Positions 7,284-62,318 of a DNA stretch of 64,000 nucleotides are shown in pieces. Below the pieces are notes generated by a model. That model saw only the letters and a list, made by a program, of their open reading frames with translations. It was not told the origin of the DNA and ran no database searches. The stretch covers positions 2,911 through 66,910 of the forward strand of contig WRDM01000011.1 of NCBI GenBank assembly GCA_009783465.1, given 5' to 3'. The position numbers and the translations under genes are program-made. Within the stretch, counting starts at the first letter, position 1; every line of letters starts with the position of its first letter. This DNA comes from Phycisphaerae bacterium (lineage in GTDB: Bacteria; Planctomycetota; Phycisphaerae; SM23-33).

Positions 7284-7392
7284 AACAGCAGGCTGTTAGA
7301 CGATTAGGCTGTTAGACTGTCAGGCGCGGGCTTATGCATCATTAGGCCTAACGCCTCATGAGCCTGCGCCTAACAGTCTAACAGCCTGTTGT
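7284..7392. repeat. Hairpin repeat with 8-nt periodic arms (cctaacag family), copy 1 of 2
   Basis: Left arm aacagcaggctgttagacgattaggctgttagactgtcaggcgcgggcttatg pairs with right arm catgagcctgcgcctaacagtctaacagcctgtt. The core ggcttatg...tcatgagcctgcgcc is shared with 55283-55393. It begins 4 nt after the stop codon. Confidence 0.85.
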
Positions 7393-7430
7393 TTTGCTTT
7401 TCCGAGGGTCCCGGAGGATAATACGCCGTT

Positions 7431-10616: not shown

Positions 10617-10781
10617 ATCGAAATCCGAAATTCGAAGCCCGAAATCCGAAACAAACTCCAAAGCCCCAAACGACAAAACCCAAACGCTCCGCTATCCAAA
10701 ACATTTGGACCGCGGAGCGTTTGAAATTTTCTGCTTTGGGGCTTTGGAATTTGTTTCGAATGTCGAATTTAGGATTTCGTA
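10617..10781. repeat. Long hairpin repeat with 7-nt periodic arms (gaaatcc family), copy 2 of 3
   Basis: Left arm gaaatccgaaattcgaagcccgaaatccgaaacaaactccaaagccccaaacgacaaaacccaaacgctc pairs with right arm gagcgtttg...ctttggggctttggaatttgtttcgaatgtcgaatttaggatttcg. It sits between convergent genes, and the right arm overlaps the last codons of mnmG. Confidence 0.85.
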
Positions 10782-30600: not shown

Positions 30601-33560
30601 ACATGGACGCCGCCGTCGCCGCGCCCATGATTCAGAATGTGTTCAACGCCCGCCTGACGGCTGCCACGCCGCCGGGCCAGCCGATTCAGCCGCAGGACCG
30701 CGTCACGGTCCAAATCGAGCCGCTGTCGAACTCGCTGCTGGTCGTCTGCTCGAAGGAGAACCTCGAACTGCTCGGCGACCTGTTGGACAAGGTGGACGTC
30801 GAGCCGGCCGTTGCCGACGGCGTGGTGGAGATCATCGAACTGAAGAACGCCACGGCGGACAACGTGCGGGCGCTGCTGCAAACCCTCATCAGCCAGGGGC
30901 TGTACAAACCCGGCACGAGCGGGACCGTCAGTGCGGCGCAGGCGGCGAGAGAGAAGGTGACGATCGTCGCCGAGTCGCGGTTGAACCTGTTGCTGGTGTC
31001 GGCCAGCAAGGAGAACCTTGCGATTGTCAAGCAGTTGGTCACGACGTTGGACGACAACAAGTTGCAGCAGGGCGACATCCGCATCTTCACGATCAAGAAC
31101 GCCAACGTGACGCAGTTGACGCCGACGCTGGTGCAGTTCTTCAATCAGAAGCTCCAGGCCGAGCGGACGGTCAACCCGTCGGTCGCCACCTCGACGATGC
31201 CGCTGGTGGCCGTCCCCGACGTCCGCACCAACACGCTGCTGGTGGCGGGTGGGAAGGAAAACTTCGACTTCGTGGAGAAGATGCTCGAACAGCTCGACGG
31301 TCCCGGCGCCGCCGCCAATGAATTCCGGCGGTTCCAACTGGAGAACGCGACGGCGGCGACGCTTCAGCCGACGTTGCAGAGCCTGTTCACGCAGCGGCTT
31401 GCGACCGGAAAGAGCAAAGAGGCCGTCTTCATCTTCCTGGACGCGGTCAGCAACGCGATGTTGATCGGTGCCAGCCCGGAGGACATGGCGTTCGCCGCGG
31501 ACATCATCGCGCTGATGGACGTCAAATCCGAGGCTCCCGACGCGACGAAGATTTTCCCGCTGACGTACGCGAATTCGGCCTCGCTGGTTCCGGTGCTTCA
31601 GAGCCTCCTTCGCGCCGGAACGACGGTGGCAGCCGTCGCCGTCACCTCCGATGAGCGGACCAACTCCATCCTGGTGACAGCCGGCACGGCGGATCTCGAA
31701 CGCGTCGCGGATCTGATCGGTAAACTGGACATCGCCGAGACGCTCACGAACGTGGCGGAAATGCGTATATTCCAACTCATGTACGCCGACGTGACCGAAC
31801 TGGCGACCACGCTGCGCGAAGCGCTCAACAACCGCCCAGCCGCCACGCCGGGGTCCAGCGCCAACCGGGCGATCCTGCTCCAACTGGTGACGCGCTCGGC
31901 GGAGGGGCAGGACCTGATCATCAGCGCCCTCCAGCAGGGCGTGCAGTTGACGCCAGACCGTCGGACGAACATGCTGATCGTCACCGCGCCGAAAGAGAAC
32001 ATGCCGGTGCTGGAGACGATTATCAAGGCGCTGGACACGGTCAGCCCGACGCAGGTGGAAATCAAGATGTTCACGCTCAAGAACGCTGCCGCCCGACAGA
32101 TGGCGCAGATGCTCACGGAGCTGTTCCGGCTGGACAACACGAACAACCGCAACGTCCAGTTGATGATGCCGGGCCTGGTGGCGATGCCGGGCGGCGTGGC
32201 GGCCCCGGTGGCCGTGCCGGGCGTCGAGGGCGACGCGGCCGCTGGCACCGCCGGCGAACCGGTGCTCGCCGTGACGGTCGATCCGCGAACCAACAGCCTG
32301 CTGGTCGCCGGCACGAAGGCGTATCTGGAAATGGCCACGCAGGTCATCGAGGAACTCGACAACCAGACCGAGACCGAACGCAAGATGGAACTGTTCCGCA
32401 TGCGGAACAGCCAGGCGGCCGACATCGAGACGGCCCTGCGGAGTTTCCTCGACCGCGAGCGGCAGACGCTGACGTCGACGCTGGGCACCGATGCCGTCGG
32501 GGCGGCCGACCGGCTGCTGGAACGTGAAGTGATCGTCGTGGCCGAGCGGGCGACCAACACGCTGCTGGTGTCGGCCAGTCCGCCGTATTTCGATCGGATC
32601 GCCGAGATCATCCGCGAACTCGACAAGGCGCCGCCGCAGGTGCTCATCCAGGTGCTGCTGGCCGAAGTGACGCTCGACAACTCCATGGACCTGGGCATGG
32701 AGTGGACGCACACGACCACCGCCAACGGGCACGCGGTCAGAACGGGCACGGACTTCGGCCTGTCCGCCCAGGCGAACGGCTTCTCGCTGTCGGTGACGGG
32801 CGACAACCTCAACCTGTTCCTGCGGGCGCTGCAAAGCCAGGGCCGCGTCGAGGTGCTCAGCCGGCCTCAGATTCACGCCACCGACAACATGAACGCGGAG
32901 ATCAACGTCGGCCAGGAGGTGCCCTTCATCCGCGACACCCGCGTGGACGTCAACGGCGGCATCTACAACACGATCCAGTACGAGACGGTGGGCGTGATTC
33001 TGAACCTCACGCCGCGCATCAACCACGAAGGCCAGGTCAAGCTCGACGTCGCGCCGGAAGTCAGCTCGCTCTCGACCTCCAGCGTCCAGGTCGGCAACGG
33101 CGTGTACATGCCGATTATCAACACCCGCAAGGCCAAAACGACCGTCACCGTGCAGGACGGCCATTCGGTGATCCTCGGCGGGCTGATCACCGCCCACGAC
33201 GAAAAACGCGACGAGAAGGTGCCCGTCCTGGGCGACATCCCGCTGCTGGGCTGGTTCTTCAAACATCAGAAGACCGTCAAGCAGCGGACGGAACTGCTGA
33301 TCATCCTGACGCCGCACGTGATTCGGAACAACGATGACACCGACAAGATGACCGACGAGCAGATCGAAAAGATGAACCTGCTCCGGCAGATGCGTGCGGG
33401 CATGAGTCGGATTGGCGACCCGTCGCTGGTGCCGGCTACCATGCCCGCCAGCGGGCAGGCGCCGATGCTCCAGGAGACCCCGCGCACCGGCGGCAACACG
33501 CAGGAGGAACTGGACCAGCTCAACACGGCTCCGGTGCGGATCGACGCGCATGCGCGGTGA
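21615..33560 (+). CDS. Giant secretin (3,981 aa): signal peptide, N0-like domain, about 40 tandem secretin N-domain repeats, C-terminal secretin pore domain
   Basis: aaggag lies upstream of ATG 21615. The signal peptide is MRQSKIVFLTMAFLVIVGVASVVAQ. The C-terminus carries secretin-domain motifs (VLIQVLLAEVTLD, LQSQGRVEVLSRPQI, VGVILNLTPRI, PIINTRKAKTTV, VPVLGDIPLLGWFFK, ELLIILTPHVI). The repeat unit follows the pattern [VI]x[VI][FY]xLKNAxAxxL...V.AD.RTNSLIV......I..LI..LD. Confidence 0.9.
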   Translation: MRQSKIVFLTMAFLVIVGVASVVAQEAAEPAAQPAPAEQPAAAPAEQPAPAAPEAAPAPAPEVKRDYQFQYNGVPYAEVVRRFAQAAKKPILGDVPVEGHLTFFDSESYTYEEAFEMLNTLLAMRGASIIEQGRFIRCMPTPMLNAKIYTGTEKTENIKPTEIVTVLLPLKYLDAEVAAKTAIRMVSSYGSVAPMSRGRGVVITDHMGNIQRVKVLFDEMDRDSFSSQQVRSFALKQAQARNIVNVVNQLFMWKGDPTKMPDDWAFAASDDRSNTLVLIGVGPKLALAEDMVTQLDSGGPREGDMKVYDLKNAKAESLANSVRQALTTNRDAAGISVVGDPGSNRLIVAVPPNMIKQVDAMVEQLDVSATSVASGFRVFRLTKADANQMANVMQQLMHRARDPRTGVQPAAVMADGPTNSVIISGLAADIELATAVIQELDMGEDGLSRDVQVVPLKNGRGHETANMIRQLFTQQRQGQPGASSLRVESDPTGGSLIISASPGDWQLIQEILRKIEVNGPAASIVTRMVAVKNIRPGELAGSLHHVFNSRPRPVPVVFAPSDRTSTMLVSAPLEEQDAIADIIRSLDVGPDAPREDVTIVNLTSSDARQLAETIRQMIPHDMHGRIQVVGDWMSNSVVLRAPDSDRESMVKIIRDLDVPIQKEVSQVQTVQVQHVHASQLAGSLMQIYGRQQNQQRGQRQGGGSLVMVAAADLVIVPTGEKALIVKASPSEMEQVLAMIKQLDVPGGASTSGMRVIQLKSGEAYRVADVIRGMIPHELHGQMQVVADPGSNSVVIRGPESVRQAMEDVVATLDATARQGMRQTRLIKVEHVAASQAAETLRQLYVNRSGDHSQQVMVAAAPGDKQLIIDAPDSLVEAVAQMATSLDVAESVTAQSVRVYTLSSGSAPEIAQSLGRLYQQRDGGDRRGQPPPPRFEASATSNQVIVSASEEQFKVVDELLKQMQDVPAALASDTKTFKLQYAKARDLAPVLQNMLQGNTNVGGGQWQQQPQWQPPQEGGGENQWQPRPRYQPRSDSSAPFRVAALESNNTLIVQGTADKLALAEQLIQTFDVDVNDTEKATIQIIGLKNAKADSLAESINRTLADQAQQRGAGTRVTVTPEMNTNSLLVRGLPADIDNVLAMVQQLDVDGEARVEMKVYRLENSDVADIEKVMSKLLGDITRMGASNRRQGGGGESGYSVTADERTNSLIVFTTAANFKVIETLLADLDKGPEDITPRKQREIHFAWLENQKARDVVAKLEAMYRDRKPADRPYIEPDSFFNTITLIAEEADIKQMMEMIDKFDSQPVKRNLQVKVFPLLAMRADRMADAIERVYSQMTDAKITVTDRIPGRSMPRYPQDKPGDNRVPNGGANGHPVEQPNPSQPEPQSEPHHADPGGDVGVEILPSLLEMMSEPALADADDTGPAITISVDSESNSLVIAATREELQEIERFIQDLTTSTSTSEMDIRYYKVKSADVTAIAHTLDLLFNPQSAGRNPQAGGQAARTGRRGGNPGNPQPDPNQPPQDPNNPQPQPAPQPVPAPNVILVPYARTSMLIVRAKPAEFDMIEVLLDTLDRPSGVLTDMRIFTLKNVTANEVAANVRDLFQRASASVGDGGEAAPPANGNEQREEMIRQQLELQASGGGGGGNISVTANQQSNSVIVVASPENLRIVERLINELDQSAGGRTVVVRLYPVRAGNAEAVANSLRQAFGTGGNFANPGGRRGGVGAVAMADSAFSISANEESRVVIVSADPDKHELVQKVLDELNAAAEAAGASVVHVYRLDNAVAQGAAGALREAVSNNRSIRISADNSNNSIIINAPEAEHERLAALIADIDKPMTSVPDVRTIVLRNADPTATANNLTRIFSQQQQQAGPRRGNVIGQGLAIEVDIESKTLMVRSDEETFEKVRQLASHLDATSPRGRSKQHVFTLQYADAISIAPSMTQAFAPQPGVRLSPDDFVQIVAEANSNSLIVTANETNIEKVITLIAKIDTETTGGNRNELLVLANAKSADMVNTLRTVAANVPRGKTPVVVSADEGSNALIFAGPGGELDKLIKMAMQLDQASSAGAGTMGVYVMALENGQAVDMATKVRDLYNQQANAARAQRKSIDPLAVTADDRANALILATTKDMYEQVNGWVSQLEKITPAKGTLRVITVPNADPLEVERAIQQLYGGQGPGRPSRIGDPDEEEEEPTTQPTSQPAQEDDPQAQPQIQPQVVAPPLAAEPAALPAGRGGTVSTTVFPQQRTIFVTAADEDFEAIQALVKAMDDAAAKSRQGVQLFVLKHADTQQMAQSLNNVFNRLARRQEDLVIATPIQGTRAIVVAATEAKMKEASALIEQMDSEALSPKVEFRVYPLKNANPARLLPTVQGMLSQLQRARTGEQITVSADERTRSLIVTASASVFNQIDNIIETLDQTPQYEKVEVLILPLKTAEASRLAVVLTQMLTPGSDGQASQQARALQEQIRLLRIRSTVQDQVPELDLSQPIKITADGAAGSNSLVITSTANNLKAMAAVVEMMDRLPVSEGVMVRVAHLEHADAATVMAVLRSIFDQGQRLTSRVPGGRAEPTTASGKALTSPLNIAVDARTNTLILAGVEESVALAEIVLRDLDRENAKFTTEVRLFQVKNVSAVSLSNMVRSVFAEGAAVGGSEGLNTQVTRLKLVLEQAVEKPEDGKDEPGDEQNEAAPTPPATERSTAIAKSRPALTVQADPTSNIIIVAARSDIMPLIADVISTMDLAGAATGPNDVRILPLTHADASRLQQMIMTIYTSGPAAVQIRAEDRPTIVIDTRTNALVVSATEKTVAAVEALVARLDTKSDVEQLDVRLLKIEHVDAAEVGGTVQRIMDARVQRLVSQGVRDADAARVTIVAYARSNSLIIGGSAEGYELIKTIVSQLDTEEPALAGQIQLIPLTNANAATIAGSLSNLFNQRYQAVRSAELARQRPIIMSDVRSNSLMVVANADDSKLLTGLLEKLDIKLTDAAVGIHVVPMQNMDAAVAAPMIQNVFNARLTAATPPGQPIQPQDRVTVQIEPLSNSLLVVCSKENLELLGDLLDKVDVEPAVADGVVEIIELKNATADNVRALLQTLISQGLYKPGTSGTVSAAQAAREKVTIVAESRLNLLLVSASKENLAIVKQLVTTLDDNKLQQGDIRIFTIKNANVTQLTPTLVQFFNQKLQAERTVNPSVATSTMPLVAVPDVRTNTLLVAGGKENFDFVEKMLEQLDGPGAAANEFRRFQLENATAATLQPTLQSLFTQRLATGKSKEAVFIFLDAVSNAMLIGASPEDMAFAADIIALMDVKSEAPDATKIFPLTYANSASLVPVLQSLLRAGTTVAAVAVTSDERTNSILVTAGTADLERVADLIGKLDIAETLTNVAEMRIFQLMYADVTELATTLREALNNRPAATPGSSANRAILLQLVTRSAEGQDLIISALQQGVQLTPDRRTNMLIVTAPKENMPVLETIIKALDTVSPTQVEIKMFTLKNAAARQMAQMLTELFRLDNTNNRNVQLMMPGLVAMPGGVAAPVAVPGVEGDAAAGTAGEPVLAVTVDPRTNSLLVAGTKAYLEMATQVIEELDNQTETERKMELFRMRNSQAADIETALRSFLDRERQTLTSTLGTDAVGAADRLLEREVIVVAERATNTLLVSASPPYFDRIAEIIRELDKAPPQVLIQVLLAEVTLDNSMDLGMEWTHTTTANGHAVRTGTDFGLSAQANGFSLSVTGDNLNLFLRALQSQGRVEVLSRPQIHATDNMNAEINVGQEVPFIRDTRVDVNGGIYNTIQYETVGVILNLTPRINHEGQVKLDVAPEVSSLSTSSVQVGNGVYMPIINTRKAKTTVTVQDGHSVILGGLITAHDEKRDEKVPVLGDIPLLGWFFKHQKTVKQRTELLIILTPHVIRNNDDTDKMTDEQIEKMNLLRQMRAGMSRIGDPSLVPATMPASGQAPMLQETPRTGGNTQEELDQLNTAPVRIDAHAR
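22098..32630 (+). other. Array of about 40-41 divergent secretin N-domain (NolW-like / ring-building motif) repeats within the giant secretin
   Basis: I read 40 consecutive units ending ...NSLIV...LD (for example DDRSNTLVLIG, DPGSNRLIVAV, DERTNSLIVFT, DARTNTLILAG, DPRTNSLLVAG, ERATNTLLVSA), plus one N1-like unit at the start (RGRGVVITDHMGNIQRVKVLFDEMD). The mean spacing is about 86 aa. Confidence 0.8.
32631..33326 (+). other. Secretin (beta-barrel pore) domain of the giant secretin
   Basis: The region PPQVLIQVLLAEVTLDNSMDLGMEW through RTELLIILTPHVIR has the canonical motif order of GspD/PilQ secretin C-domains. Confidence 0.85.
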
Positions 33561-33584: not shown

Positions 33585-33882
33585 GTGAAGATGGGCCGCT
33601 TGTTGCAGGGAATCAAAGCCACTAGCCACAAGCCACTAGCGACAAGGGCTTGCGAGGCGTGACGGTGAAATTGTTCCTCGCTGTGGCGAGAGAGGTCTCG
33701 ATGCTTCGCGGACGCGGAGATCGGCGGGAGCGTCCATGTTGGCCGATGATCGAGTCAGCGGAGCATCGGGACCACTCTCTCGAACGGGATGTTCATGTTT
33801 ACAGTGATGCACCGAAAACCGTTGTCGCTTGTCGCTTGTGGCTAAAACGATTCCCTCGAACCCGCGGTGCATTTTCACCGTC
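33585..33882. repeat. About 298-bp structured repeat (gccacta/gccacaa 7-nt arms plus conserved core), copy 1 of a direct pair
   Basis: It starts gtgaagatgggccgcttgttgcagggaatcaaagccactagccacaagccactagcgacaagggcttgcg and ends gcattttcaccgtc. The core gtggcgagagaggtctcgatgcttcgcgga...gaccactctctcgaacgggatgt is shared with 34458-34750. It begins 25 nt after the secretin stop. Confidence 0.85.
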
Positions 33883-34457: not shown

Positions 34458-34750
34458 GTGAAGAGGAGACGCTTGTTCGAGGGAGTCAGAGCCACTAGCC
34501 ACCAGCCACTAGCGACAAGGGCTTGCGGCGCTTGGCTGTACATGTGCACCTCACGGTGGCGAGAGAGATCCCAATGCTTCGCGGACTCGATAATCGACAG
34601 GGGGGTTCGTGGTAGCCGATCTTCGAGTCCGCGAAGCCGCAAGACCACTCTCTCGAATGGGATGTACTCATTTACCGTCACGCACCGCAAGCCCTTGTGG
34701 CTAGTGGCTTGTGGCTTGCCTCCCTCGAATGTATGGTACGATTTCACCGT
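34458..34750. repeat. About 293-bp structured repeat, copy 2 of the direct pair
   Basis: It starts gtgaagaggagacgcttgttcgagggagtcagagccactagccaccagccactagcgacaagggcttgcg and ends cgatttcaccgt. It is collinear with 33585-33882 and begins 24 nt after the lipoprotein stop. Confidence 0.85.
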
Positions 34751-38504: not shown

Positions 38505-38608
38505 CGTGATGCGGGCGTCTTGCCCGCGTCCGGATGTGGTATAGACGTGGCGTTTTTTATGGAACAGTCTCATGGATCGCACAACGCGGGCGAGACGCCC
38601 GCATCACG
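38505..38608. repeat. Palindromic element, intergenic copy (family also found inside mutS2 and the ABC permease)
   Basis: Arm cgtgatgcgggcgtcttgcccgcg (38505-38528) pairs with cgcgggcgagacgcccgcatcacg (38585-38608) with 1 mismatch. It ends 2 nt before the mutS2 stop codon (38611-38613). Confidence 0.85.
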
Positions 38609-38610
38609 TT

Positions 38611-41301
38611 TCACTCCCGTACCGGTTCCAGGTCGGTCAGGGGGATTTCCAGTTCGAAGGCGCCGCTTTGCACGACGGCGTGTTGTTTGTCCGGGTTGAT
38701 GCGGAGGAGCGTGGCGCGTTTGTGAAACGGGACGACGTACACCTGTTGGCCTGGCTGGACGGCGAGCAGTTTGTCGAGGTGTTCTTTGGATCGGCCTTGG
38801 GGGCTTCGGCGGTGCATCGGCTGTGGGGCGGCGGGCTCAGAGTCGCCGTCGCGCGGCGTCGATTCGCCGTGTCGGCTTCGATCGCCGTGTCGTGGCCCGT
38901 GTCGGCCTCGGGCGGGATCGGCCTCGCGCCCGGCCTTCGCGAACGGGCTTTCCTGCGGGAACAGTTCCTGCAACGTCACCTCCAACTCGCCGGCAATCGT
39001 CTGTACCTTCGCCTTACCTCGCGCGAAATCCACCGACGTGAGCGTGCCGTTGCCCGGCAGCTTTGTCAGCGTCACTTCGTCGCCGACCTTCATCTCGCCG
39101 ATCCGCGCCAGCCACGCGTCGAACTGCCGCGAACGCTCCTTCTGTTCGCGCAGGCTCCGCTCGAGTTCTTTCTGCGCGTGGGTTGCCTGCGCGGCGGCCT
39201 GCTCGCTGGCGGCCGCCTGCGCGTGCATCTGCTGACGCACCGCGTTGATCTGCCCCCGCACGGCTTCCTGGCCGAGGTCGGGCATCAGTTCGCGGAGGGG
39301 CACTTCGATTTGCAGCGGGTCGGCATTGACGACGGCGATCTGGCGGTGCAGCTCCAGCCGAACCAGCCTGCCCATGCGTCGCAGCGAGGGCACGAAGACG
39401 TCGTCGCCTTCTTTGAGTTCACCCAGGCCCGCCAGCCAGAGGTTGAATTCCTCCTGGAGTCGTCGCAGGTCGGCAAGTTTGACTTCGTACGAAACCTGCT
39501 GGGTTTGGGCGGCCAATTGGGCTTCCGCGGCGGCGGCGCGGGCCTGCTCGGCGTCCTGGCGGACGATGCTCGTCGCCTGAATCGCCCGGCGAAACTGCTT
39601 GCCCTGTTGGTTCAGGTATTGGCGGGATGCGCCGACGATGCGTCGGGGCAGGCCCAGGTGGGCGGCCACCGAGATGGCATGACTTTCGCCGGGCGTGCCG
39701 ATGAGCAGGTGGTAGGTCGGGCGGAGGGTTTCGGAGTTGAAGGCGACGCTGGCGTTGTCGACGCGTTCGTTGGCGTAGGCGTAGGCTTTGAGGACGCTCA
39801 GGTGCGTCGTGACGATGCACGCGCAGCCGACGCGGCGGATTTCGTCGAGAATCGCCTGCCCGATCGCGCCGCCCTCGTCGGGGTCGGTGCCGCTGCCGAG
39901 TTCGTCCAGCAGGACGAGACTGGCGGCGTCGGCTTTGTGAAGGATGTACCGCACCCGCTTGATGTGGGCGCCGAACGTGGAGAGCGACTGCTCCAGCGAC
40001 TGTTCGTCGCCGATGTCGATGAAGACGTCGCGGTAGGCGGGCATGATCGCGCCGCGCCGGACCGGAATGTGCATGCCGCTCTGGGCCATCACTACCAGCA
40101 GCGCCACCGTTTTCAGCGCGACGGTCTTTCCGCCGGTGTTCGAGCCGGTGATGATCAGCACGTCGAAATCCTGGCCAAGGCGGATGTCGATGGGGACGAC
40201 AGCCGGCGTAGCCGCGCAACGTGACGCGGGCATCTCGCCCGCGTTGTGTGTACCATCGCCCTGGCTGGTGGAAGGCGCCAAATTTTTTCCGTCATTGCCG
40301 GACGCGGGCAAGATGCCCTCGCCACGTTGCTCCGTCTGCTCGATCAGCAGCGGGTGCCTGGCCTGGTGAAACACCAGCGGGCCTCGCTCGGTGATTTCCG
40401 GGCAGGTGAAGTTGAACTGGTACGCGTACTGCGCCTTGGCCGTCAGGACGTCGATGTGGGCCAGGCTGTGGAGCGTCGTGCGGACGCGGTCGGCGACGGC
40501 GAAGATTCGCAGGGCGAGTTGGCTGAGGAGGCGTTGGATTTCTCGGCGTTCGTCCTCGGCCAGATCGCTGAGGCGGTTGTTGAGTTGCACGCAGGCTTCG
40601 GGTTCAACGAACACGGTCGCGCCGCTGTGGGACGCGCGGTGGACGACGCCGGGCAGTCGGCCTCGGTTTTCCGCCTTTACCGGCAGCACGTAGCGGTCGC
40701 CGTGGAGGGTGACGACGGCCTCCTGGAGCAGTTTGGCGACTTCGCTTTGCCGCACGTAGCTGTGGATGAGGCTGTGGATGGCCTGCGCCGTGTCGGCCAT
40801 GTGGCGGCGGACTTCGGCGAGTTTGTGGCTGGCGCGGTCGCTGACGATGCCGTCGGGGTCGATGACGGCGTGCACGGCGTCGATTTCGCTTTGGAATTCG
40901 CCGATCCCACCGGCCATCGCGTGCAGCAGCGGCAGCGACTCGGGCAGTGAGAGCAGATAGCGGCGGACGTTCATCGCGCCTTCGAGCGTGCCGGCGATGA
41001 CGAGAAAATCTTCCGCGCTGGCGCCCGCGCCCGGCGTGGCCCGTTCCAGGGCGGCGGTGATGTCCACCACGCCGCCGAACGGCGGCAAGCCCACGTCGCG
41101 CAAGGCAGCCACCATCTGGCTGACCTGTTCCAGCCACTCGCGAATCACGGCGGGGTTTCGGCTGGGCCCGATACGCCGTGCCAATTCGCGTCCCAGCCCG
41201 CACCGACAATACCGCGACAAAATCGCCCGGACGGCATCGAACTCAATTTTGTTCAGCGTAAACGAATCCACATTGGCCTCGCAAACAAACCTGTCGCTCA
41301 T
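38611..41301 (-). CDS. mutS2: MutS2-family ATPase (no Smr domain detected; triplicated C-terminal module)
   Basis: The MutS domain V has Walker A ITGSNTGGKTVALKT and Walker B LVLLDELGSGTDPDEGGA, with ARHPLL upstream. The C-terminus lacks an Smr-like LDLHG motif and instead has three roughly 45-aa related units. Confidence 0.8.
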   Translation of the reverse strand: MSDRFVCEANVDSFTLNKIEFDAVRAILSRYCRCGLGRELARRIGPSRNPAVIREWLEQVSQMVAALRDVGLPPFGGVVDITAALERATPGAGASAEDFLVIAGTLEGAMNVRRYLLSLPESLPLLHAMAGGIGEFQSEIDAVHAVIDPDGIVSDRASHKLAEVRRHMADTAQAIHSLIHSYVRQSEVAKLLQEAVVTLHGDRYVLPVKAENRGRLPGVVHRASHSGATVFVEPEACVQLNNRLSDLAEDERREIQRLLSQLALRIFAVADRVRTTLHSLAHIDVLTAKAQYAYQFNFTCPEITERGPLVFHQARHPLLIEQTEQRGEGILPASGNDGKNLAPSTSQGDGTHNAGEMPASRCAATPAVVPIDIRLGQDFDVLIITGSNTGGKTVALKTVALLVVMAQSGMHIPVRRGAIMPAYRDVFIDIGDEQSLEQSLSTFGAHIKRVRYILHKADAASLVLLDELGSGTDPDEGGAIGQAILDEIRRVGCACIVTTHLSVLKAYAYANERVDNASVAFNSETLRPTYHLLIGTPGESHAISVAAHLGLPRRIVGASRQYLNQQGKQFRRAIQATSIVRQDAEQARAAAAEAQLAAQTQQVSYEVKLADLRRLQEEFNLWLAGLGELKEGDDVFVPSLRRMGRLVRLELHRQIAVVNADPLQIEVPLRELMPDLGQEAVRGQINAVRQQMHAQAAASEQAAAQATHAQKELERSLREQKERSRQFDAWLARIGEMKVGDEVTLTKLPGNGTLTSVDFARGKAKVQTIAGELEVTLQELFPQESPFAKAGREADPARGRHGPRHGDRSRHGESTPRDGDSEPAAPQPMHRRSPQGRSKEHLDKLLAVQPGQQVYVVPFHKRATLLRINPDKQHAVVQSGAFELEIPLTDLEPVRE
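40216..40330. repeat. Palindromic element inserted in frame inside mutS2
   Basis: The sequence runs gcaacgtgacgcgggcatctcgcccgcgttgtg ... ccggacgcgggcaagatgccctcgccacgttgc. It is homologous to 46003-46136 (same orientation) and 38505-38608 (inverted). It is translated as ILPASGNDGKNLAPSTSQGDGTHNAGEMPASRCAA. Confidence 0.85.
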
Positions 41302-44280: not shown

Positions 44281-44537
44281 TTTTTACCACAGAGGCACAG
44301 AGGAGAAGAGCCACAAGCCACAAGCCACAAGCCACAAGGTATGGCTCGTCTGATGTAAACAAGACCATACTGATGAAGTGACAAAATGTCTTTGGCGTTT
44401 TCGTTATTCATGCCGTAACCATCAAAATTGCATTCATTCCTCTGCTTTCGCCGTCGTCGTCCCTTACCTCGTGGCTCGTGGCTAGGCTCTGTCTCAAAAC
44501 TAGTGGCTTTTTTCTTTCTGTGCCTCTGTGGTAAAAA
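44281..44537. repeat. Nested hairpin repeat (outer arms ttaccacagaggcacagag; inner 7-nt gccacaa arms; conserved core), copy 1
   Basis: Outer arms 44281-44302 and 44518-44537 pair. The inner arm gccacaagccacaagccacaagccacaagg (44310-44339) pairs with ccttacctcgtggctcgtggctagg. The core ggtatggc...gttttcgtt.ttca.gc...cgtcgtcg.cccttacct is shared with 47158-47337. Confidence 0.85.
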
Positions 44538-44547: not shown

Positions 44548-47148
44548 TCACGGCAGTTTCCACACCTGGACCCGATCGTTTCCGCCGTCCACCACGTAGG
44601 CCATGTTGTCGTCGTCGATCGCGACGGCCCAGGGGTAACTGAGTTGTCCCAGTTCGCGTCCGGCTGAACCCAGTGAAGCGATTGCCTGGCCGTCGGGCGT
44701 GAAAATCTGTACGCGGTTGTTGCCCTGTTCGACGACGACCAGCCGGCCGTCGCGCGTCAACGCCAGGCCGTACGGATATCGCAACTGCCCAGGCCCGCTG
44801 CCCGGCGAGCCGATGTAGCCCTGCAATTCACAACGGAGATTGTACACCGCGACGCGGTGATTGCACGCGTCCGTCACGTACAATCGGTCGCGGGCGGCGT
44901 CGACGGCCATCGACTGCGGCCTCGAGAACTGCCCCGCCTCCGGGCCGAACGATCCGAACGCGCCGAGGAATTTTCCTTCCGGCGTGAAGAGGTTGATGCG
45001 GTCGTTGGCGCCGTACTCGCTGACGAGCACGCGGCCGTCGGGGAGGAACGCGATGTCGGTGGGGAAGATGAATTGGCCGTCGCCCTCGCCGAAACTGCCC
45101 CACTGGCGGACGAGTTCGCCGTCACGGGAGAAGACCATGACACGGTGGCAGTGCGTGTCGGCCACGTAGATGTTTCCGTCGGGTCCGACGCTGACGCCGC
45201 AGGGTTTGCCGGCGACGATGTCGGGCATGGCGATGTCGCGCACGAAACCGCCGTCGGGGCTGAGCAGTTGGACGCGTCCGGTTTTGTCGACGACGACGAG
45301 CGTGCCGTCGGCGAAGCGGTCGATCGCGCGCGGGTAGAGGAGCTCGCCGTTGCCCGAGCCGCGTCGGCCGATCTTGCCGCGCACGTCGGGCGGGCTGTCG
45401 TGCGGACGCGAGCAGGCCGGCAGCGACACGCCCGACAGAGCGACGATCAGCAGCAGCGTCATCAGCGAGCGGCGGCGGCGAGCCAGCCGCAGCAGCAGCC
45501 ACAGGCCGATCGCGGCGGCGAGGTAGAAGCCGAATAATAGCAGGCATGCGGCGACGACTTCCTGGTCCCGCAAGGCGTGCATCTGGTTGAGGAGGTAGAG
45601 GCTGAGGCTGAAGGCGCCCGGCGGCGAGACGATCTGGCTGCCGGTGATTTCGGTCAGGCCGAGCATGAGGACGACGACGGCGGCCCCCGCGAGCGTCGGC
45701 CAGGTCGCGGGGAGATGGACGTGCCGCCAGGCCTGCCAGGGCGACGCGCCGTCGACGGCGGCGGCTTCGGCGAGCGAGCGGCTTCGCGCGTCGCGGACGG
45801 CCCAGAAGACGATCAGCGCCAGGCCGGCGAATCGCACGCCCTGGAAGAGGCTCACCAGCAGCACGCTGTCGCGCAGCGGCAACAGCCACTCGTACCGCGC
45901 GATCCACTGCGACATCGCCACCGCGACCAACCCGCCGGGAATGATGGCCACGACCAGCAGGGAGACGGCGATGAGGGCGGTGATAATGCGGCGCGGGCGG
46001 CTGCAACGTGACGCGGGCGTCTCGCCCGCGTTGTGCGTTCCATTGATTTGGTTGTTGGAATACGTCGAACCGCCTTTGCCGCTCCGCGTGGGCAAGATGC
46101 CCGCGAGACGCATGGGCGAGACGCCCTCGCCACGTGAAACGCCCGTGTCCCAAGCGATCCTTGCCAGCAGCAGCGCCACGCCGGCGCCGAGGGCGGAGAC
46201 GGCCAGCGATTGGACGTATTTATCCGCCTGGAGCGTGACGAACTGCGCGAGATAATGCGGCGACATCGTGCCGGCCAGCAACGCCAGAGGCCCCGCCAGC
46301 GTGAACAGTAGCAGGGCGGTCACGAACGTCCAGGCCCATCGTCTCGGCCGGCCTGTAAATGATTTGGCACCGCCGCCGGTGTGATCGGCCCAGCCCTTCG
46401 CCGATCGCGCCAGCGCGACGGCCAACAGCAGCGACATCGCCGCCAGCGGCACGCAGCCGGCCACCGCCGGACCGACGCGAAGCGACTGCTGCATCGCCAA
46501 CGCCAACTCCGTGCCGATCGTCGCCTGACCGGCCAAATGCAGCGACGCGAAATCGGCTAAACACAGCGCAAAACACAGCCCCGCCGCCAGCGCGGCCGGG
46601 CGGGTCATCAGCGGAGCGGCCACGTATCGCAATCGGGCGAGCGGGCGGGCATCCAGGGCGGCGGCGTCGTGCACCTCGGCGGGAATGTTTCGCCACCCCT
46701 GCGCCAACAGCAGCGCCGCCAACGGCCAATACCACAGCACCAGTGTGAACGAGGAGGAGATCCAGGCCGCCCACTCCGCCAGCGTGCGGTCGGCGGCGAC
46801 GTACTGCCCCAGCGCCGCCGTCGGCGACAGGCAGATCGCCCACGAATAATACAACACGTACTGCGGCAGCAGCACGCTCGCCAATGCCAGCACGGTCAGC
46901 CCGCCCGCCCACCGACGCGATGCCGTCGCCATCAGCCATGCCGGCACGAGCCCCAACGCCACCGCCATCGCCGCCACCATCGCCGCCAACCCCACCGACC
47001 GCGCCGCCACCGGTGACCACCAGAGCGCCAACCCCTCCGCCAGATCCGCCAGCGAAACCTGCGACACCAGCCCCGCCAACGGGACAACGACGAGGCAAGC
47101 CCAGATCGCGACGCCGAGCAGGAGCAGGATGGGTCGTAGAATGGTCAT
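44548..47148 (-). CDS. ABC transporter permease (two-domain FbpB-type) fused in frame to an NHL-repeat beta-propeller protein
   Basis: ATG at 47148 gives MTILRPILLLLGVAIWACLVV. Multiple TM segments occur in two permease halves. After LLRLARRRRSL comes an internal Met with a lipoprotein-like signal MTLLLIVALSGVSLPAC, then six NHL-type blades (YPRAI, PCGVSV, FPTDIAF, RPQSMAV, YPYGLAL, YPWAVAI). Confidence 0.8.
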   Translation of the reverse strand: MTILRPILLLLGVAIWACLVVVPLAGLVSQVSLADLAEGLALWWSPVAARSVGLAAMVAAMAVALGLVPAWLMATASRRWAGGLTVLALASVLLPQYVLYYSWAICLSPTAALGQYVAADRTLAEWAAWISSSFTLVLWYWPLAALLLAQGWRNIPAEVHDAAALDARPLARLRYVAAPLMTRPAALAAGLCFALCLADFASLHLAGQATIGTELALAMQQSLRVGPAVAGCVPLAAMSLLLAVALARSAKGWADHTGGGAKSFTGRPRRWAWTFVTALLLFTLAGPLALLAGTMSPHYLAQFVTLQADKYVQSLAVSALGAGVALLLARIAWDTGVSRGEGVSPMRLAGILPTRSGKGGSTYSNNQINGTHNAGETPASRCSRPRRIITALIAVSLLVVAIIPGGLVAVAMSQWIARYEWLLPLRDSVLLVSLFQGVRFAGLALIVFWAVRDARSRSLAEAAAVDGASPWQAWRHVHLPATWPTLAGAAVVVLMLGLTEITGSQIVSPPGAFSLSLYLLNQMHALRDQEVVAACLLLFGFYLAAAIGLWLLLRLARRRRSLMTLLLIVALSGVSLPACSRPHDSPPDVRGKIGRRGSGNGELLYPRAIDRFADGTLVVVDKTGRVQLLSPDGGFVRDIAMPDIVAGKPCGVSVGPDGNIYVADTHCHRVMVFSRDGELVRQWGSFGEGDGQFIFPTDIAFLPDGRVLVSEYGANDRINLFTPEGKFLGAFGSFGPEAGQFSRPQSMAVDAARDRLYVTDACNHRVAVYNLRCELQGYIGSPGSGPGQLRYPYGLALTRDGRLVVVEQGNNRVQIFTPDGQAIASLGSAGRELGQLSYPWAVAIDDDNMAYVVDGGNDRVQVWKLP
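46003..46136. repeat. Palindromic element inserted in frame inside the ABC permease gene
   Basis: The sequence runs gcaacgtgacgcgggcgtctcgcccgcgttgtg ... gggcaagatgcccgcgagacgcatgggcgagacgccctcgccacgtg. It is translated as RGEGVSPMRLAGILPTRSGKGGSTYSNNQINGTHNAGETPASRC, in the same frame as the mutS2 copy. Confidence 0.85.
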
Positions 47149-47157
47149 ACGTGAAAA

Positions 47158-47337
47158 GCCACTAGCCACTAGCCACCAGGTATGGCCGAACCTGTTGTGA
47201 ATAAGAACACACTGGCGGTGCGGCAACGTATCGTCAGTGTTTTCGTTGTTCACGCATACTCGTCAGACTCGCATCAACTCTTTTGCCTTCACCATCGTCG
47301 CCCCTTACCTTGTGGCTAGTGGCTTGTGGCTAGTGGC
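47158..47337. repeat. Hairpin repeat with 7-nt gccacta arms and conserved core, copy 2
   Basis: gccactagccactagccaccagg pairs with ccttaccttgtggctagtggcttgtggctagtggc. The core is collinear with 44310-44490. It lies between the permease start and the binding-protein stop. Confidence 0.85.
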
Positions 47338-47345
47338 TCGCATTC

Positions 47346-49860: not shown

Positions 49861-49869
49861 CGAAGAAGA

Positions 49870-50145
49870 CTGTAGGCTGTAGGCGCGGTGCTGGCTTATG
49901 GTGGTCCCGCTACGTAAAAACGTCTTGAAATCCGAAACAAACTCCAAAGACTCAAACGACAAAATTCCAAACGCTCTCGCTATCCATGCGTCAAAGCTCG
50001 CGGAAAGCGAGAGCGTTTGGGATTTTTCTTTTGGGCTTTGGAGTTTGTTTCGGATTTCGAGTTTCGTATTTCGGATTTGAAAACGCTCCCGCATGGCTGG
50101 ACCACCATAAGCCGGCACCGCGCCTACAGCCTACAGCCTACAGCC
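49870..50145. repeat. Composite nested hairpin: outer cctacag-family arms enclosing a gaaatcc-family element (copy 3), between convergent serpin and bioB
   Basis: Outer arm ctgtaggctgtaggcgcggtgctggcttatggtggtcc (49870-49908) pairs with ggaccaccataagccggcaccgcgcctacagcctacagcctacagcc (50099-50145). The inner element 49927-50079 is homologous to 10617-10781. The bioB stop (50138-50140) lies inside the right outer arm. Confidence 0.9.
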
Positions 50146-52056: not shown

Positions 52057-52101
52057 TATACTTTCCGTCGGGCGACATGCAATTGGCTTTCGGAAGACAG
52101 C

Positions 52102-52226
52102 GACAGGTGACAAGCGACAAGTGACCAGAGCAGGAATGTCTTGTTTTGTTCCACGCTCTCGCGCAGTGTGGACGTTTTGAAAGACAAGACTTTCCTGCTC
52201 TGGTCACTTGTCGCTTGTCACTTGTC
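52102..52226. repeat. Hairpin repeat with 7-nt gacaagt arms; inverted homolog of 5665-5793
   Basis: gacaggtgacaagcgacaagtgaccagagcagg (52102-52134) pairs with cctgctctggtcacttgtcgcttgtcacttgtc (52194-52226). It ends 1 nt before the acetyltransferase stop codon. Confidence 0.85.
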
Positions 52227-53432: not shown

Positions 53433-53695
53433 GAAGACCGAGCAGGATTACGCGGATGGAAGGATTGTATGGAGAATTGTTCGTTCCAGTACGGCCATTC
53501 GGTAATTCAGGGATAACGTATCGAAATTTCCCCGGTTTTCCGCATGCCCTCTGGAATCGGCGCGCCTGGCCACAGGCCCTGCCAGTTTGCGTTGTAAGAC
53601 GTTGTGCGTGATACAGCGCTTCATTTGTCACAACGACCTACAACGCAAACTGGCAGGGCTGCTGTGGCCAGGCGCGCCGATTCCAGAGGGCATGC
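53433..53695. repeat. Mosaic repeat region: truncated relative of the 12781 element plus a 54-56-bp-arm inverted repeat
   Basis: gaagaccgagcaggattacgcggat (from 53433) matches the 12781 terminus. The IR arm 53542-53595 (gcatgccctctggaatcggcgcgcctggccacaggccctgccagtttgcgttgt) pairs with 53640-53695. The loop motif is related to the element inside mnmG. Confidence 0.8.
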
Positions 53696-53716
53696 GTGTC
53701 GATGTCCGCGTCGTCG

Positions 53717-54756: not shown

Positions 54757-55275
54757 ATGTACCGAATGCTGAGTCTGGGCGTGATGGTGGCGTTGCTGGG
54801 GTCGCTGATGGGGTGTGCGAGCAGCGGGGAGCCCCAGGCGCGGAGTCGCTGGTCCGGCGGCAGCACGCCTCCGGGGTATCAGTGGGGCGAGGGGTTGACG
54901 TCGCTGTGGGATTCGTCGACGTACAACACGCAGGTGCTGCAGGCCTGCCACGACCTCTACGACGGCAAGATGGCGATTACGCGCGTCAATGCCGCCAAGC
55001 GTCTTGGCGAACTCAAGCCCACGAGCAATTTCGCGGTGGAGCGGCTGGAGCGTGGCATGAAGGATCGCGTGATGGAGGTTCGTATCGCGTCGGCGTTGGC
55101 GTTGCAGGAGATCGGCACGGACGGCGCGATGCGGCATCTGAAGGAGGCGCAGGAAAAAGGCCAGGTGCCGTGCGATCTGCCCACATCGGCCGGCCAGGGC
55201 AGCGCGTTCCAGGGCGATAACACGCCCTCCGACAGCACGGAGACGACGGTGGAAGTGAAGGCGAGGAAGGACTGA
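54757..55275 (+). CDS. Lipoprotein with HEAT-like repeats
   Basis: The signal peptide and lipobox are MYRMLSLGVMVALLGSLMGC. HEAT/PBS-lyase-like repeats are present (RVNAAKRLGELK, VRIASALALQEIGTDGAMRHL). Confidence 0.65.
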   Translation: MYRMLSLGVMVALLGSLMGCASSGEPQARSRWSGGSTPPGYQWGEGLTSLWDSSTYNTQVLQACHDLYDGKMAITRVNAAKRLGELKPTSNFAVERLERGMKDRVMEVRIASALALQEIGTDGAMRHLKEAQEKGQVPCDLPTSAGQGSAFQGDNTPSDSTETTVEVKARKD

Positions 55276-55282
55276 GAGGAAG

Positions 55283-55393
55283 GCTGTTAGACTGTTAGGC
55301 TGTTAGACTGTTCGGGAGAGGCTTATGAAGGATTTGGCCTGATTTTTCATGAGCCTGCGCCTAACAGCCTAACAGCCTAATAGTCTAACAGTC
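55283..55393. repeat. Hairpin repeat with 8-nt periodic arms (cctaacag family), copy 2 of 2
   Basis: gctgttagactgttaggctgttagactgtt pairs with cctaacagcctaacagcctaatagtctaacagtc. The core ggcttatg...tcatgagcctgcgcc matches 7284-7392. It lies between convergent genes. Confidence 0.85.
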
Positions 55394-55401
55394 TCTGTCT
55401 C

Positions 55402-62078: not shown

Positions 62079-62156
62079 ACGATTATCGGCCAGATTATAG
62101 TCGCGGGAATTGTTTTTGTTAATCCGCAAATTTGCGGATGTCGTTTTCGTGTGCAC

Positions 62157-62302
62157 GACAGTGAAATCGTACCGTCAATTCCAGGGAATGTTTTCGTTGA
62201 TTCGTTAACTGGTTGACTGGTGAGGTTTCTCGAATTAACGAGTCAACCAGTTAACGAGTCAACGAAAACATTCCCTGGAATTGACTGTACGATTTCACCG
62301 TC
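62157..62302. repeat. 146-bp long hairpin (gttaacg family core, about 44-nt outer arms) between fusA and the upstream oxidoreductase gene
   Basis: gacagtgaaatcgtaccgtcaattccagggaatgttttcgtt pairs with aacgaaaacattccctggaattgactgtacgatttcaccgtc with 2 mismatches. The inner arms are gttaactggttgac/gtcaaccagttaac. The end motif gatttcaccgt also terminates the repeats at 33882 and 34750. Confidence 0.9.
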
Positions 62303-62318
62303 GTGCTGGTCACTGGAC

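Follow-up and report, generated by a model that had tools for sequence, protein, structure and literature searches.

A REPIN-like palindromic element lying in frame within a Phycisphaerae permease gene, its copies in other genes, and a candidate mobilizing transposase

In the window (the whole 64,000-nucleotide stretch of Phycisphaerae DNA analyzed here), the gene for an ABC permease encloses a palindromic element that reads through in the frame of its host, as does a second copy in mutS2. How does such an element come to lie within coding sequence, what sets the frame in which it is read, and does the encoded peptide matter to the protein that carries it? An earlier note on this DNA suggested either that selection filters insertions to the one open, tolerated frame or that the peptide has a function of its own, and it also considered that the host genes might be decaying or the shared frame coincidental.

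The sequence at 46003 to 46136 of the forward strand is as that note described it, and a translated palindromic copy of about 134 bp is confirmed within the permease gene; the element proper (copy C) measures 129 nt at 46006..46134 on the minus strand (nhmmer profile positions 1 to 129, E = 6e-31), or 43 in-frame codons reading RGEG...THNAGETPASR, and the additional bases are palindromic flank plus the next Cys codon. Residues 374 to 417 of the surrounding 901-codon open reading frame (ORF) (44548..47253, minus strand) translate as RGEGVSPMRLAGILPTRSGKGGSTYSNNQINGTHNAGETPASRC. On the coding strand, copy C begins with two 24-nt REP-like hairpin modules (46087..46134, minus strand), CGTGGCGAGGGCGTCTCGCCCATG and CGTCTCGCGGGCATCTTGCCCACG, which are translated as RGEGVSPM and RLAGILPT and are delimited by the sequence, the family alignment, and the statistics of hairpin tags and loops. 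There follows a variable spacer with a small internal hairpin (46036..46086, minus strand; translated RSGKGGSTYSNNQINGT), recognized from sequence, fold, and family alignment, where conservation within the element family is lowest. The copy closes with an inverted terminal hairpin (46006..46035, minus strand), CACAACGCGGGCGAGACGCCCGCGTCACGT, translated HNAGETPASR and defined by sequence, fold, and the alignment of the three window copies; in the predicted fold, this hairpin pairs with the first module to form a long REPIN-like stem, and the folding energy of the whole copy is −73 kcal/mol (z = −5.9 versus shuffled sequences).

The host of copy C (44548..47253, minus strand) is the permease of an ABC importer (Fe3+/ThiP/PhnU-like) in which two TMDs are fused and to which a further transmembrane (TM) helix and a periplasmic NHL beta-propeller are added, as judged from Pfam, NCBIfam, an AlphaFold model, and hydropathy; the Pfam and NCBIfam matches are to a double BPD_transp_1 and a C-terminal NHL propeller. 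Public gene calls start the gene at 47148 (866 aa), and the record of P0001 is named [quoted passage not shown] The insert had been placed in a loop between the two halves of the permease: it does lie in a loop, but not exactly between the halves, as two further TM helices precede it and the loop (aa 369 to 418) comes before the core that Pfam assigns to the second half. By hydropathy, this loop lies two TM helices before the EAA loop and is natively flanked by SRPRR, and in the AlphaFold model the insert has pLDDT values of 28 to 32 and no secondary structure; it is thus predicted to be disordered and cytoplasmic. The insert is absent from nine orthologous permeases that are about 42% identical, and one orthologue has at that position a different repeat family, unrelated to the element. 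An orthologue only 72% identical still carries an element copy there, and the orthologue P0003 has six modules versus two in the window permease; separate ENA and JGI assemblies each have contigs encoding identical orthologue proteins P0002 and P0003.

Two further copies occur in the window. Copy B (40219..40326, minus strand; 108 nt, or 36 codons, with one module) is translated in frame as RGEGILPASGNDGKNLAPSTSQGDGTHNAGEMPASR, according to sequence, alignment, and translation, within mutS2 (38611..41301, minus strand; NCBIfam TIGR01069 at 656 bits, Pfam MutS_V and MSSS), where it separates the ARHPLL motif from the ATPase domain. The Bacillus subtilis MutS2 structure (7qv3) lacks the insert, having 4 residues where the window protein has 48, and is otherwise collinear with it across the insert. 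Copy A (38505..38608, plus strand; 104 nt; profile E = 1.6e-18) is intergenic and oriented opposite to copies B and C; it sits 3 bases past the mutS2 stop codon and between convergent genes, the classical position of a REP. The mean column identity in an alignment of the three copies is 72%, and the core 12-mer occurs seven times in the window with at most one mismatch, versus 1.6 expected. Rfam covariance models gave no match at the gathering threshold anywhere in the window (no intron, riboswitch, or other RNA family). The translations bear out that the mutS2 and permease copies share both frame and orientation relative to their host genes. Because each of these genic copies is free of stops in four of its six frames, the chance that two copies agree in frame is about 1/6 to 1/4, so the agreement is not significant by itself and acquires significance only from a larger catalogue.

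Such a catalogue, drawn from contigs of the same metagenome that represent several related populations and not one closed genome, contains 212 distinct element copies in 0.89 Mb (nhmmer) and at least 119 exact core matches (the duplicate locus L004 left out). Elements consist of one to six 24-nt modules, followed by about 50 nt of spacer that includes a small hairpin and then by one inverted hairpin; a module comprises a GTGN tag, a CGCGGGC stem, a 5-nt loop, and a GCCCGCG stem, with 7 to 8 bp paired. The outer tags are GTGG (70), GTGA (30), GTGT (26), and GTGC (11), the inner tags are GTCC and GTCT, and the canonical GTAG was absent among the hairpin tags counted; CGTC is present between inner modules and in the GCCCGCGTCACG variant, although as an unpaired tag, in the manner of the CGTC-tagged REP class, it is not demonstrable. 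Among the approximately 159 classifiable copies, 75 (about 47%) lie in frame inside genes, as called by a codon-usage classifier and checked with Pfam for 20 hosts. All 20 of these host ORFs match known families that are functionally unrelated to each other, and several have domains on both sides of the insert; the sequences on either side of the element are scored as coding, in a frame that runs on unbroken, and the host ORFs are intact. Dozens of unrelated proteins share the motifs RGxGVSP and THNAGETPA. A word-indexed protein search with the consensus peptide gave no candidates, and an exhaustive profile search of proteins returned 24 at E ≤ 1e-3, an undercount given the weakness of the 37-position profile. 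A scan of a genome collection for the terminal hairpin plus GTTGTG gave three matches, none in the source organism, whose contig lies outside the GTDB representatives.

Outside genes, 72% of copies have lengths that are a multiple of three, and the catalogue holds no copies between divergent genes. One locus (L033) has an empty site where two others (L090 and L040) are filled. This empty site might itself be a decayed solo hairpin, a reading that we do not find convincing. Neither a target-site duplication nor a conserved flanking target was seen at the junctions or in this empty/filled comparison, and although the element ends are inverted (CAACGTG...CACGTTG), these are the REP hairpins themselves. 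The nine orthologues and the MutS2 structure without the insert, together with the empty site, show these to be real insertions in real genes.

The frame in which genic copies are read is severely restricted. Of the 75, the HNAGETPA frame accounts for 59 and its palindrome-symmetric twin for 14, the remaining 2 being of mixed phase; none uses any of the other four frames throughout. Put in terms of the hairpin, the phase or its twin in 73 of 75 copies is GCG-GGC-(GTC-TCG or GAG-ACG)-CCC-GCG, giving AG[VS/ET]PA. The shared frame of the two window copies is therefore no coincidence, and with hosts that are intact, conserved proteins, decay is not borne out either. Of the proposal that selection admits the one open, tolerated frame, the restriction is real, but "one open" is wrong: five of six frames of the consensus element have no stop, and in individual copies each unused frame is stop-free in 42 to 76% of cases, so openness cannot be the filter. 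By our own arithmetic, a null model in which only stops matter yields the observed counts with a probability of about 1e-24. What separates the frames is their content: the two used ones carry 3 to 4 Arg plus Lys (codon-usage scores of +0.12 and −0.04), and the four unused ones 11 to 14 per 42 residues (scores of −0.13 to −0.78). The bar on Arg-rich readings is not absolute: a few copies translate their opening hairpin as RASRPR and then change phase, and four hairpins downstream of a transposase gene nested in ValRS (described below) translate as RGRDA....

Orientation is governed less strictly. Genic copies are forward in 59 cases and reverse in 16, so the common orientation of the two window copies, although true of those two, reflects a tendency of about 4:1 and not a rule; the metagenome catalogue, the kind of check that the earlier note had proposed, confirms a single phase or its twin but contains both orientations. 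Since non-genic copies between co-directional genes show the same bias (21:6), the orientation bias does not arise from selection on the peptide.

A candidate means of mobilization is at hand in the same metagenome, where a protein at locus L024 matches the NCBIfam model NF047646 for REP-associated tyrosine transposases (RAYTs) at 83.4 bits (cutoff, 80), has the HVH motif, and is encoded between hairpins of the element type, two upstream and four inverted downstream. The core beside this gene differs from the window terminal hairpin at two loop positions, and the core as it stands in the window occurs on both sides of a 56%-identical RAYT at locus L002, from a related Tepidisphaeraceae MAG. 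One RAYT copy with its flanking hairpins is nested, in frame and stop-free, within ValRS. The homologues found number 4,342; among the matches listed, most are free-standing proteins of 200 to 350 aa, many labelled RayT by JGI. Neither a RAYT nor a pair of empty and filled alleles occurs within the window, and it is from these flanking hairpins that a RAYT appears the most likely agent of mobilization.

The explanation that we prefer, with a probability of roughly 0.75, is that the element is a mobile, REPIN-like, nonautonomous, high-copy-number element built from REP-type hairpins and copied by a RAYT, tolerated within genes only in a phase that is not Arg-rich, and encoding a peptide without a role. 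The RAYT likely copies the element, and copies would land both between and inside genes. To persist inside a gene, a copy would need a length divisible by three, a site in a loop or linker that tolerates it, and a phase giving a small, uncharged, disordered peptide rich in Ala, Gly, Ser, Pro, and Thr; insertions in the Arg/Lys-rich phases would be purged. In the permease, the result would be an unstructured cytoplasmic loop of 43 residues ahead of the second TMD core, with no role of its own.

There is some chance, though we think it doubtful, that this REPIN lineage has become gene-resident and is adapted to life inside coding sequence. Several features point in that direction: each 24-nt module equals eight codons, codon usage in the used phase is host-like, about half of the copies are in frame in genes, lengths divisible by three extend to copies outside genes, and at least one RAYT copy, with its hairpins, lies in frame in the essential ValRS. 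If so, the host could delete the system only by exact excision, which would amount to a persistence strategy not yet described for REPINs and RAYTs and to a mechanistic model for the palindromic elements of Rickettsia.

It is unlikely, but deserves weighing against purging of Arg-rich phases, that the frame is instead set at insertion, by a short target that occurs in one codon phase under GC3-biased codon usage, such that copies are born in phase. IS200/IS605-type Y1 transposases use short specific targets, which lends support to this idea, and words of four to six bases are very phase-biased in confident genes (CGTG is 80% and ACGTG 88% in one phase). The equal orientation bias within and outside genes implies that insertion mechanics or strand bias shape the distribution, and the toleration of an Arg-rich reading beside the RAYT in ValRS and the 72% of non-genic copies with lengths divisible by three also fit. 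Yet CGTG fails as the phase-setting target, as its natural phase is opposite to the observed one: in genes, CGTG naturally falls in the phase CGT|G just 7% of the time, and targeting would predict the unused, Arg-rich phase. Even a bias of 88% would give 73 or more of 75 copies with a probability of only about 0.004 (again by our own arithmetic), the copies compared show no conserved flanking target or duplication, and it would be a coincidence that the used frames are exactly the two that avoid 11 to 14 Arg or Lys.

That the peptide is itself a functional module spread by the element, be it a linker lending flexibility, a motif that is bound or modified, or a site of protease cleavage, strikes us as very improbable. 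[quoted passage not shown] Scans of host proteins found no Pfam or NCBIfam match in the insert region, modeled confidence is low (pLDDT of about 30), hosts have unrelated functions, distant orthologues do without the insert or, in one case, have the unrelated repeat family in its place, module number varies from one to six, and copies in reverse orientation specify another peptide in their middle part. The second proposal of the earlier note, that the peptide has a function of its own, is accordingly not supported. Finally, we give almost no credence to the element being absent from the mature product, through decaying or chimeric genes at the repeat or through intron- or intein-like removal: metagenome assemblies can misjoin at repeats and so stable an RNA hairpin might be processed, but both sides of the insert are collinear with a single family (MutS2 with 7qv3, the permease with its orthologues), ORFs are intact with coding flanks, the ENA and JGI assemblies agree on P0002 and P0003, there is no Rfam intron and no Pfam intein or endonuclease domain, and cleavage by RNase III would presumably destroy the mRNA and not splice it.

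To our knowledge, in-frame palindromes have been regarded as peculiar to Rickettsia, whose elements have never been matched to a transposase. The present family, mobile and largely tolerated on our preferred reading, is unrelated in sequence, GC-rich, and from a different phylum, has a similar in-frame frequency, and comes with an identifiable RAYT carrying the same hairpins. With it, the route by which such elements come to lie in genes becomes open to study, as does the choice between targeting and the purging of Arg-rich insertions as the source of the frame rule. In practical terms, Phycisphaerae protein segments of the form GVSPA...THNAGETPA, and apparently other repeat-derived segments as well, are to be regarded as mobile insertions rather than lineage-specific domains, and they mark structurally permissive loops.

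The Rickettsia palindromic elements (RPE-1 to RPE-10; Ogata et al. 2000, 2002, as summarized in PMC10969869 and PMC3733652) resemble the element in being palindromes of about 100 to 150 bp, with tens to hundreds of copies, close to half of them in frame in unrelated housekeeping genes (here, about 47%), and in having a family-characteristic frame that gives a conserved peptide at sites compatible with protein folding. Rickettsia conorii, for example, has 44 RPE copies, nearly half within ORFs (PMC10969869). RPEs are AT-rich and unrelated in sequence to the GC-rich element described here, and an NCBIfam scan of two host proteins had no RPE model among its matches at E ≤ 0.001. The host here is a high-GC Phycisphaerae member (Planctomycetota) and not an obligate intracellular alphaproteobacterium, the ends of the element are built of amplifiable 24-nt hairpin modules, and a candidate RAYT is present, whereas CGTC REPs, the class in which PMC3733652 places RPE sequences, are reported there to lack association with a transposase gene. 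MITEs with in-frame fusions (ERIC, Correia/NEMIS, Coxiella QMITE1, and Anabaena elements; PMC10969869) are likewise small, nonautonomous, bounded by inverted repeats, and occasionally found in ORFs, to which they add peptides, but their intragenic copies are occasional exceptions, and for our element no IS-type terminal inverted repeats, no target-site duplication and, looking as far as the RAYT, no parent IS were identified.

Closer in several respects are the GTAG REPs of Opitutus terrae (Di Nocera et al. 2013, PMC3733652), also from the PVC superphylum, which are short, GC-rich, RAYT-associated stem-loops in inverted dimers and clusters; known genes, many with roles in DNA repair or related to RNA, harbor them as units, dimers, or clusters that encode 20 to 80 additional residues. 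The same paper records a mutation of the GTAG-20 tag to GTGG, which is also the commonest tag here, and by analogy GTGG represents a variant tag and not grounds for exclusion from the REP class. The stem and loop sequences differ, the intragenic share is far higher here, and the available text of that paper does not report a strict single hairpin phase or lengths in multiples of three outside genes.

With the REPINs and BIMEs of Pseudomonas and Escherichia coli, the element shares two inverted REPs and a spacer that together form one long hairpin, a RAYT flanked by REPs (a REPtron), and copies downstream of genes and between convergent genes. These systems are the subject of work by Bertels and Rainey (2011), Nunvar (2010), and Ton-Hoang (2012), with modelling in PMC8049555. 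The canonical GTAG tag of REPINs is replaced here by GTGG, GTGA, or GTGT on outer hairpins and GTCC or GTCT on inner ones. Classical REPINs are essentially extragenic, whereas about half of the copies here are in frame within genes and a RAYT itself is nested in ValRS: the element behaves as a REPIN but departs from the extragenic location of that class.

At 46003-46136 the window DNA reads as the earlier note described: a copy of the palindromic element (copy C; 46006-46134, minus strand) lies within a 901-codon ORF (44548..47253, minus strand), where it encodes residues 374-417, RGEGVSPMRLAGILPTRSGKGGSTYSNNQINGTHNAGETPASRC. By Pfam and NCBIfam, the host gene encodes a fused double BPD_transp_1 ABC-importer permease (ModB-like matches at 86-278, BPD_transp_1 at 421-590) with a C-terminal NHL beta-propeller, and an identical 866-aa product of this gene is present at NCBI, named ABC transporter permease subunit. 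Copy B (40219-40326, minus strand), within mutS2 (38611..41301, minus strand; TIGR01069, 656 bits), is read RGEGILP...THNAGEMPASR, in the frame and orientation of copy C. Copy A (38505-38608), opposite in orientation to both, is intergenic, 3 bases past the mutS2 stop and between convergent genes. The likeness among these copies far exceeds chance: a core 12-mer (≤1 mismatch) occurs 7 times in the window versus 1.6 expected, nhmmer E-values are 6e-31 (copy C), 4e-19, and 2e-18, and copy C has a folding energy of -73 kcal/mol (z = -5.9). Frame sharing by two copies alone is not significant, since each has four stop-free frames out of six.

On the coding strand, the element begins with at least one 24-nt hairpin module (consensus CGTGGCGCGGGCGTCTCGCCCGCG), continues through a variable spacer of ~50 nt with a small GAAGACG/CGTCTTC hairpin and then CCAATGGAACG, and ends in an inverted hairpin, CACAACGCGGGCGAGACGCCCGCG(C/T)CACG. 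The outer module pairs with this terminal hairpin, so that the entire unit forms one long stem, an architecture that is that of a REP doublet, as in REPINs/BIMEs. Outer hairpins bear GTGG, GTGA, or GTGT tags and inner ones GTCC or GTCT; the canonical GTAG tag is absent from element hairpins in a tally over the catalogue, and Rfam has zero matches in the window. The number of modules is two in copy C (129 nt), one in copy B (108 nt), and six in the copy of a permease orthologue of 72% identity. Across all loci, lengths peak at 126, 129, and 132 nt, with further peaks at 102 and 105 nt. A length divisible by three is found in 62 of 68 intragenic copies and in 61 of 85 others (72%), versus one third expected, and the whole family looks shaped for reading-frame neutrality.

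The core hairpin has just three matches in GTDB representative genomes, and a scan of JGI metagenomes assigns nearly all of the matches listed to one sample (Ga0123353 / 3300010167). Contigs encoding identical proteins are common to this sample and ENA assembly ERZ27257304 (where the window is k141_3092085); the catalogue loci therefore derive from one community, in which three or more related Phycisphaerae populations are present. With the duplicate locus L004 left out, the metagenome loci contain at least 119 exact-core copies, and nhmmer recovers at least 212 distinct copies in 0.89 Mb. When 1.84 billion representative proteins are searched exhaustively with a profile of the translated element, only 24 reach E ≤ 1e-3, an undercount given the short profile; every named protein among them is "MAG ... 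[Phycisphaerae bacterium]" with an FWE88_ tag, so the translated element appears confined to this lineage.

These copies are insertions into real genes, and orthologues differ in the presence or absence of the insert. At the permease site, the comparison with element-free orthologues that the earlier note proposed yields nine, at ~42% identity, with a short linker and no insert; the orthologue at 72% identity carries the same element with its additional modules. In a further orthologue, P0002 (71% identical; L100:8185-8361), the site is occupied in frame by another palindromic family, reading IRNPKSEIRNKSQ... / IRNPKSEIRNKSQTTTFQNPNG..., and this loop therefore tolerates more than one repeat family. 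This second family, GAAATCCGAAAC.../...GTTTCGGATTTC, is unrelated to the element and also lies intergenically in the window at 3061-3256, 10621-10803, and 49867-50139. Other short inserts in the ~42%-identical orthologues (P0007, alignment columns ~387-400; P0009, columns ~798-830) read like translated hairpin repeats of other families (LEWHGLPARENTARM; NSHKDTKSQRE...LGVLVPSW), and one such orthologue, P0004, is assigned by NCBI to Sedimentisphaerales; the in-frame insertion of repeats may be common throughout Phycisphaerae.

Bacillus subtilis MutS2 (7qv3) aligns on either side of the copy B insert, with 4 residues versus 48 here. In three orthologues of another protein, L033 reads PEL-CVTGDAM-FAAAV (L033:4983-5047, empty or a short remnant) where L090 and L040 hold 42-44 element-encoded residues (full elements at L090:7505-7611 and L040:9166-9398); likewise, the full element of L048 corresponds to a terminal hairpin alone in L086. 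No target duplication is recognized at these differing sites (L033/L090/L040, L048/L086). Such sites vary between related populations and may help define junctions. All 20 hosts scanned with Pfam match a known protein family (KdpD, FeoB, RNase R, ValRS, LpxB, Lnt, a sigma-54 activator, an ABC exporter, cobalamin adenosyltransferase, exosortase, and a UvrD-like helicase among them), and wherever domain matches flank the insert on both sides, the element either interrupts one such match or sits at a domain boundary. Two related LpxB genes (L026:3061-4722, minus strand; L063:2124-4046, plus strand) carry the element after GHPLFD in opposite orientations, each in a permitted phase, reflecting either independent insertions at a permissive site or a palindromic unit flipped in place. 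Assembly chimerism is ruled out by collinearity, and identical orthologue proteins are also encoded in two separate assemblies.

Copies were called intragenic when the element frame was stop-free, the frame stayed open for ≥150 nt on each side, and both flanks exceeded 0.2 on a codon-usage log-odds score trained on long ORFs with GC3 > GC1 > GC2 (0.4 to 0.5 bits per codon for real genes, ≤0.03 for antisense shadow ORFs). Among the matches listed, 57 of 119 exact-core copies are intragenic: 45 are read in the HNAGETPA frame, 11 in its palindrome-symmetric twin (AGVSPAL...), and one otherwise, the last being a lone hairpin beside the transposase gene of L002, not an element, and excluded from the total. 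An independent set lacking the exact core gives 19 of 44 (14, 3, and 2, respectively), and its two exceptions begin in the RASRPR phase, then shift back. Excluding the L002 hairpin, 75 copies are intragenic (59 HNAGETPA, 14 twin, 2 other), and ~47% of copies are in frame within intact genes. Both used frames read each hairpin GCG-GGC-(GTC-TCG or GAG-ACG)-CCC-GCG, that is, AGVSPA or AGETPA. The reading phase is nearly exclusive, and the frame shared by the two window copies is no coincidence; the contrary case, use of all frames in decaying hosts, is contradicted by the near-single phase and the intact host genes.

Orientation behaves differently from frame. The common orientation noted earlier holds for the two intragenic window copies but not as a rule: the ratio is 59:16 in intragenic copies versus 21:6 in non-genic copies between co-directional genes (Fisher odds ratio, 1.05), and this equal bias makes orientation a matter of insertion or RNA-level biology rather than of the peptide. 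The catalogue holds no non-genic copies between divergent gene pairs.

A candidate agent of spread is encoded next to hairpins of this type. In L024, a ValRS ORF (4158-8024, plus strand; E = 9e-173 to Thermus ValRS) contains, between YYLRYPL and TTRPETMLGD, an in-frame, stop-free insert (4839-5610, plus strand) composed of two hairpin modules, a full Y1/HUH transposase, and four inverted hairpins downstream, preceding the TTRPET editing-domain motif. The transposase matches NCBIfam NF047646, "REP-associated tyrosine transposase" (RAYT), at 83.4 bits versus a curated cutoff of 80. A Tepidisphaeraceae MAG (L002) encodes a RAYT 56% identical to it with the same core hairpin on both flanks, and among the matches listed of 4342 homologues most are free-standing, 200 to 350 aa long, and often annotated RayT. 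This places the element hairpins in the REP/RAYT world. By eye, the nested insert is AT-richer than its host gene, and the same ORF carries a second insertion, a full element at aa 681-724.

We thus have a high-copy REPIN-like family together with a RAYT carrying the same hairpins. Spread of the element would depend on the RAYT; after insertion, Arg-rich phases and lengths that are not multiples of three would be purged, and modules would be gained and lost in 24-nt steps through slippage. The two used frames encode 3 to 4 Arg+Lys per ~42 residues (codon-usage scores, +0.12 and -0.04), and the four unused frames 11 to 14 (-0.13 to -0.78). An Arg-rich reading occurs beside the RAYT in the L024 ValRS, so the filter is not absolute. 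The main rival to post-insertion purging is a target motif with strong codon-phase bias that sets the frame at the moment of insertion: short words are very phase-biased in these genes, but CGTG is in the observed phase in just 7% of its natural occurrences.

A function of the encoded peptide itself, as the earlier note offered, finds no footing in the 17 codons upstream of the core, compared with the family consensus. Differences in translated copies are distributed over codon positions 1, 2, and 3 in proportions of 35, 36, and 30% (synonymous:non-synonymous, 44:302) and those in non-genic copies in proportions of 30, 40, and 30% (49:341), giving no evidence of amino-acid constraint over these codons (odds ratio, 1.01; p = 1.0); conservation of the element stems from its DNA hairpins, not the peptide. 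The note's other option, filtering to one open frame, fails because five of six consensus frames are open and each unused frame is open in 42 to 76% of copies; stop codons as the cause of the frame rule are rejected (stops-only null probability, ~1e-24 by our own arithmetic).

In an AlphaFold model of the permease (12-sequence alignment; mean pLDDT, 74), exactly the inserted residues have pLDDT 28 to 32 and lack secondary structure, between two confident helices. By hydropathy, two transmembrane helices separate the insert-bearing loop (aa 369-418), flanked by SRPRR, from the downstream EAA loop (aa 487-513). The EAA loop of type I ABC importers is cytoplasmic, and the insert, two helices earlier, would therefore face the cytoplasm as a predicted disordered segment. 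The insert does occupy a permease loop, though not strictly one between the two halves, since two second-half helices precede it. At aa 595-615, directly before the NHL propeller, an extra transmembrane helix follows the last permease helix and an RRRR stretch, ending in a lipobox-like SLPAC/LxGC motif whose Cys614 (45412-45414) is invariant in 12 of 12 orthologues. It looks like an internal lipoprotein signal, and the propeller may therefore either have a lipid anchor or be released by cleavage in the periplasm.

Hairpin repeats are unusually abundant in this genome. The window has at least five additional inverted or palindromic families, e.g., GCCACAAGCCAC..., AGGCTGTTAGAC..., and perfect 35-36-nt inverted pairs, at 516-678; 5627-5801 and 52092-52226; 7290-7387 and 55274-55401; 11124-11215; 33610-33725, 34489-34716, 44302-44357, and 47303-47345; 53541-53696; and 62153-62306. 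Those at 44302-44357 and 47303-47345 sit just beyond the ends of the permease gene. The 36-nt direct-repeat families of 22400-32300 (D1, D3, and others; irregular spacing of ~230 nt to 2.7 kb) are protein-domain repeats unrelated to the element, within a 3981-aa secretin-like ORF with multiple Secretin_N matches.

We found no literature description of this element family or of these samples. The family is a real, statistically robust case of a phenomenon that is already known, though rare, here with a candidate transposase and in a new lineage. Unlike classical REPINs, it lacks GTAG and has half of its copies within genes. In behavior it matches the Rickettsia RPEs, with in-frame intragenic copies and a conserved encoded peptide (of the 44 RPE copies in R. 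conorii, nearly half lie within ORFs, with the peptide conserved [PMC10969869]), but neither its sequence nor its taxon makes it an RPE. Its behavior also matches the intragenic GTAG/CGTC REPs reported by Di Nocera et al. 2013 (PMC3733652); Opitutus terrae, a member of the PVC superphylum, has the largest number of these, and its GTAG-20 tag is GTGG, as in the element.
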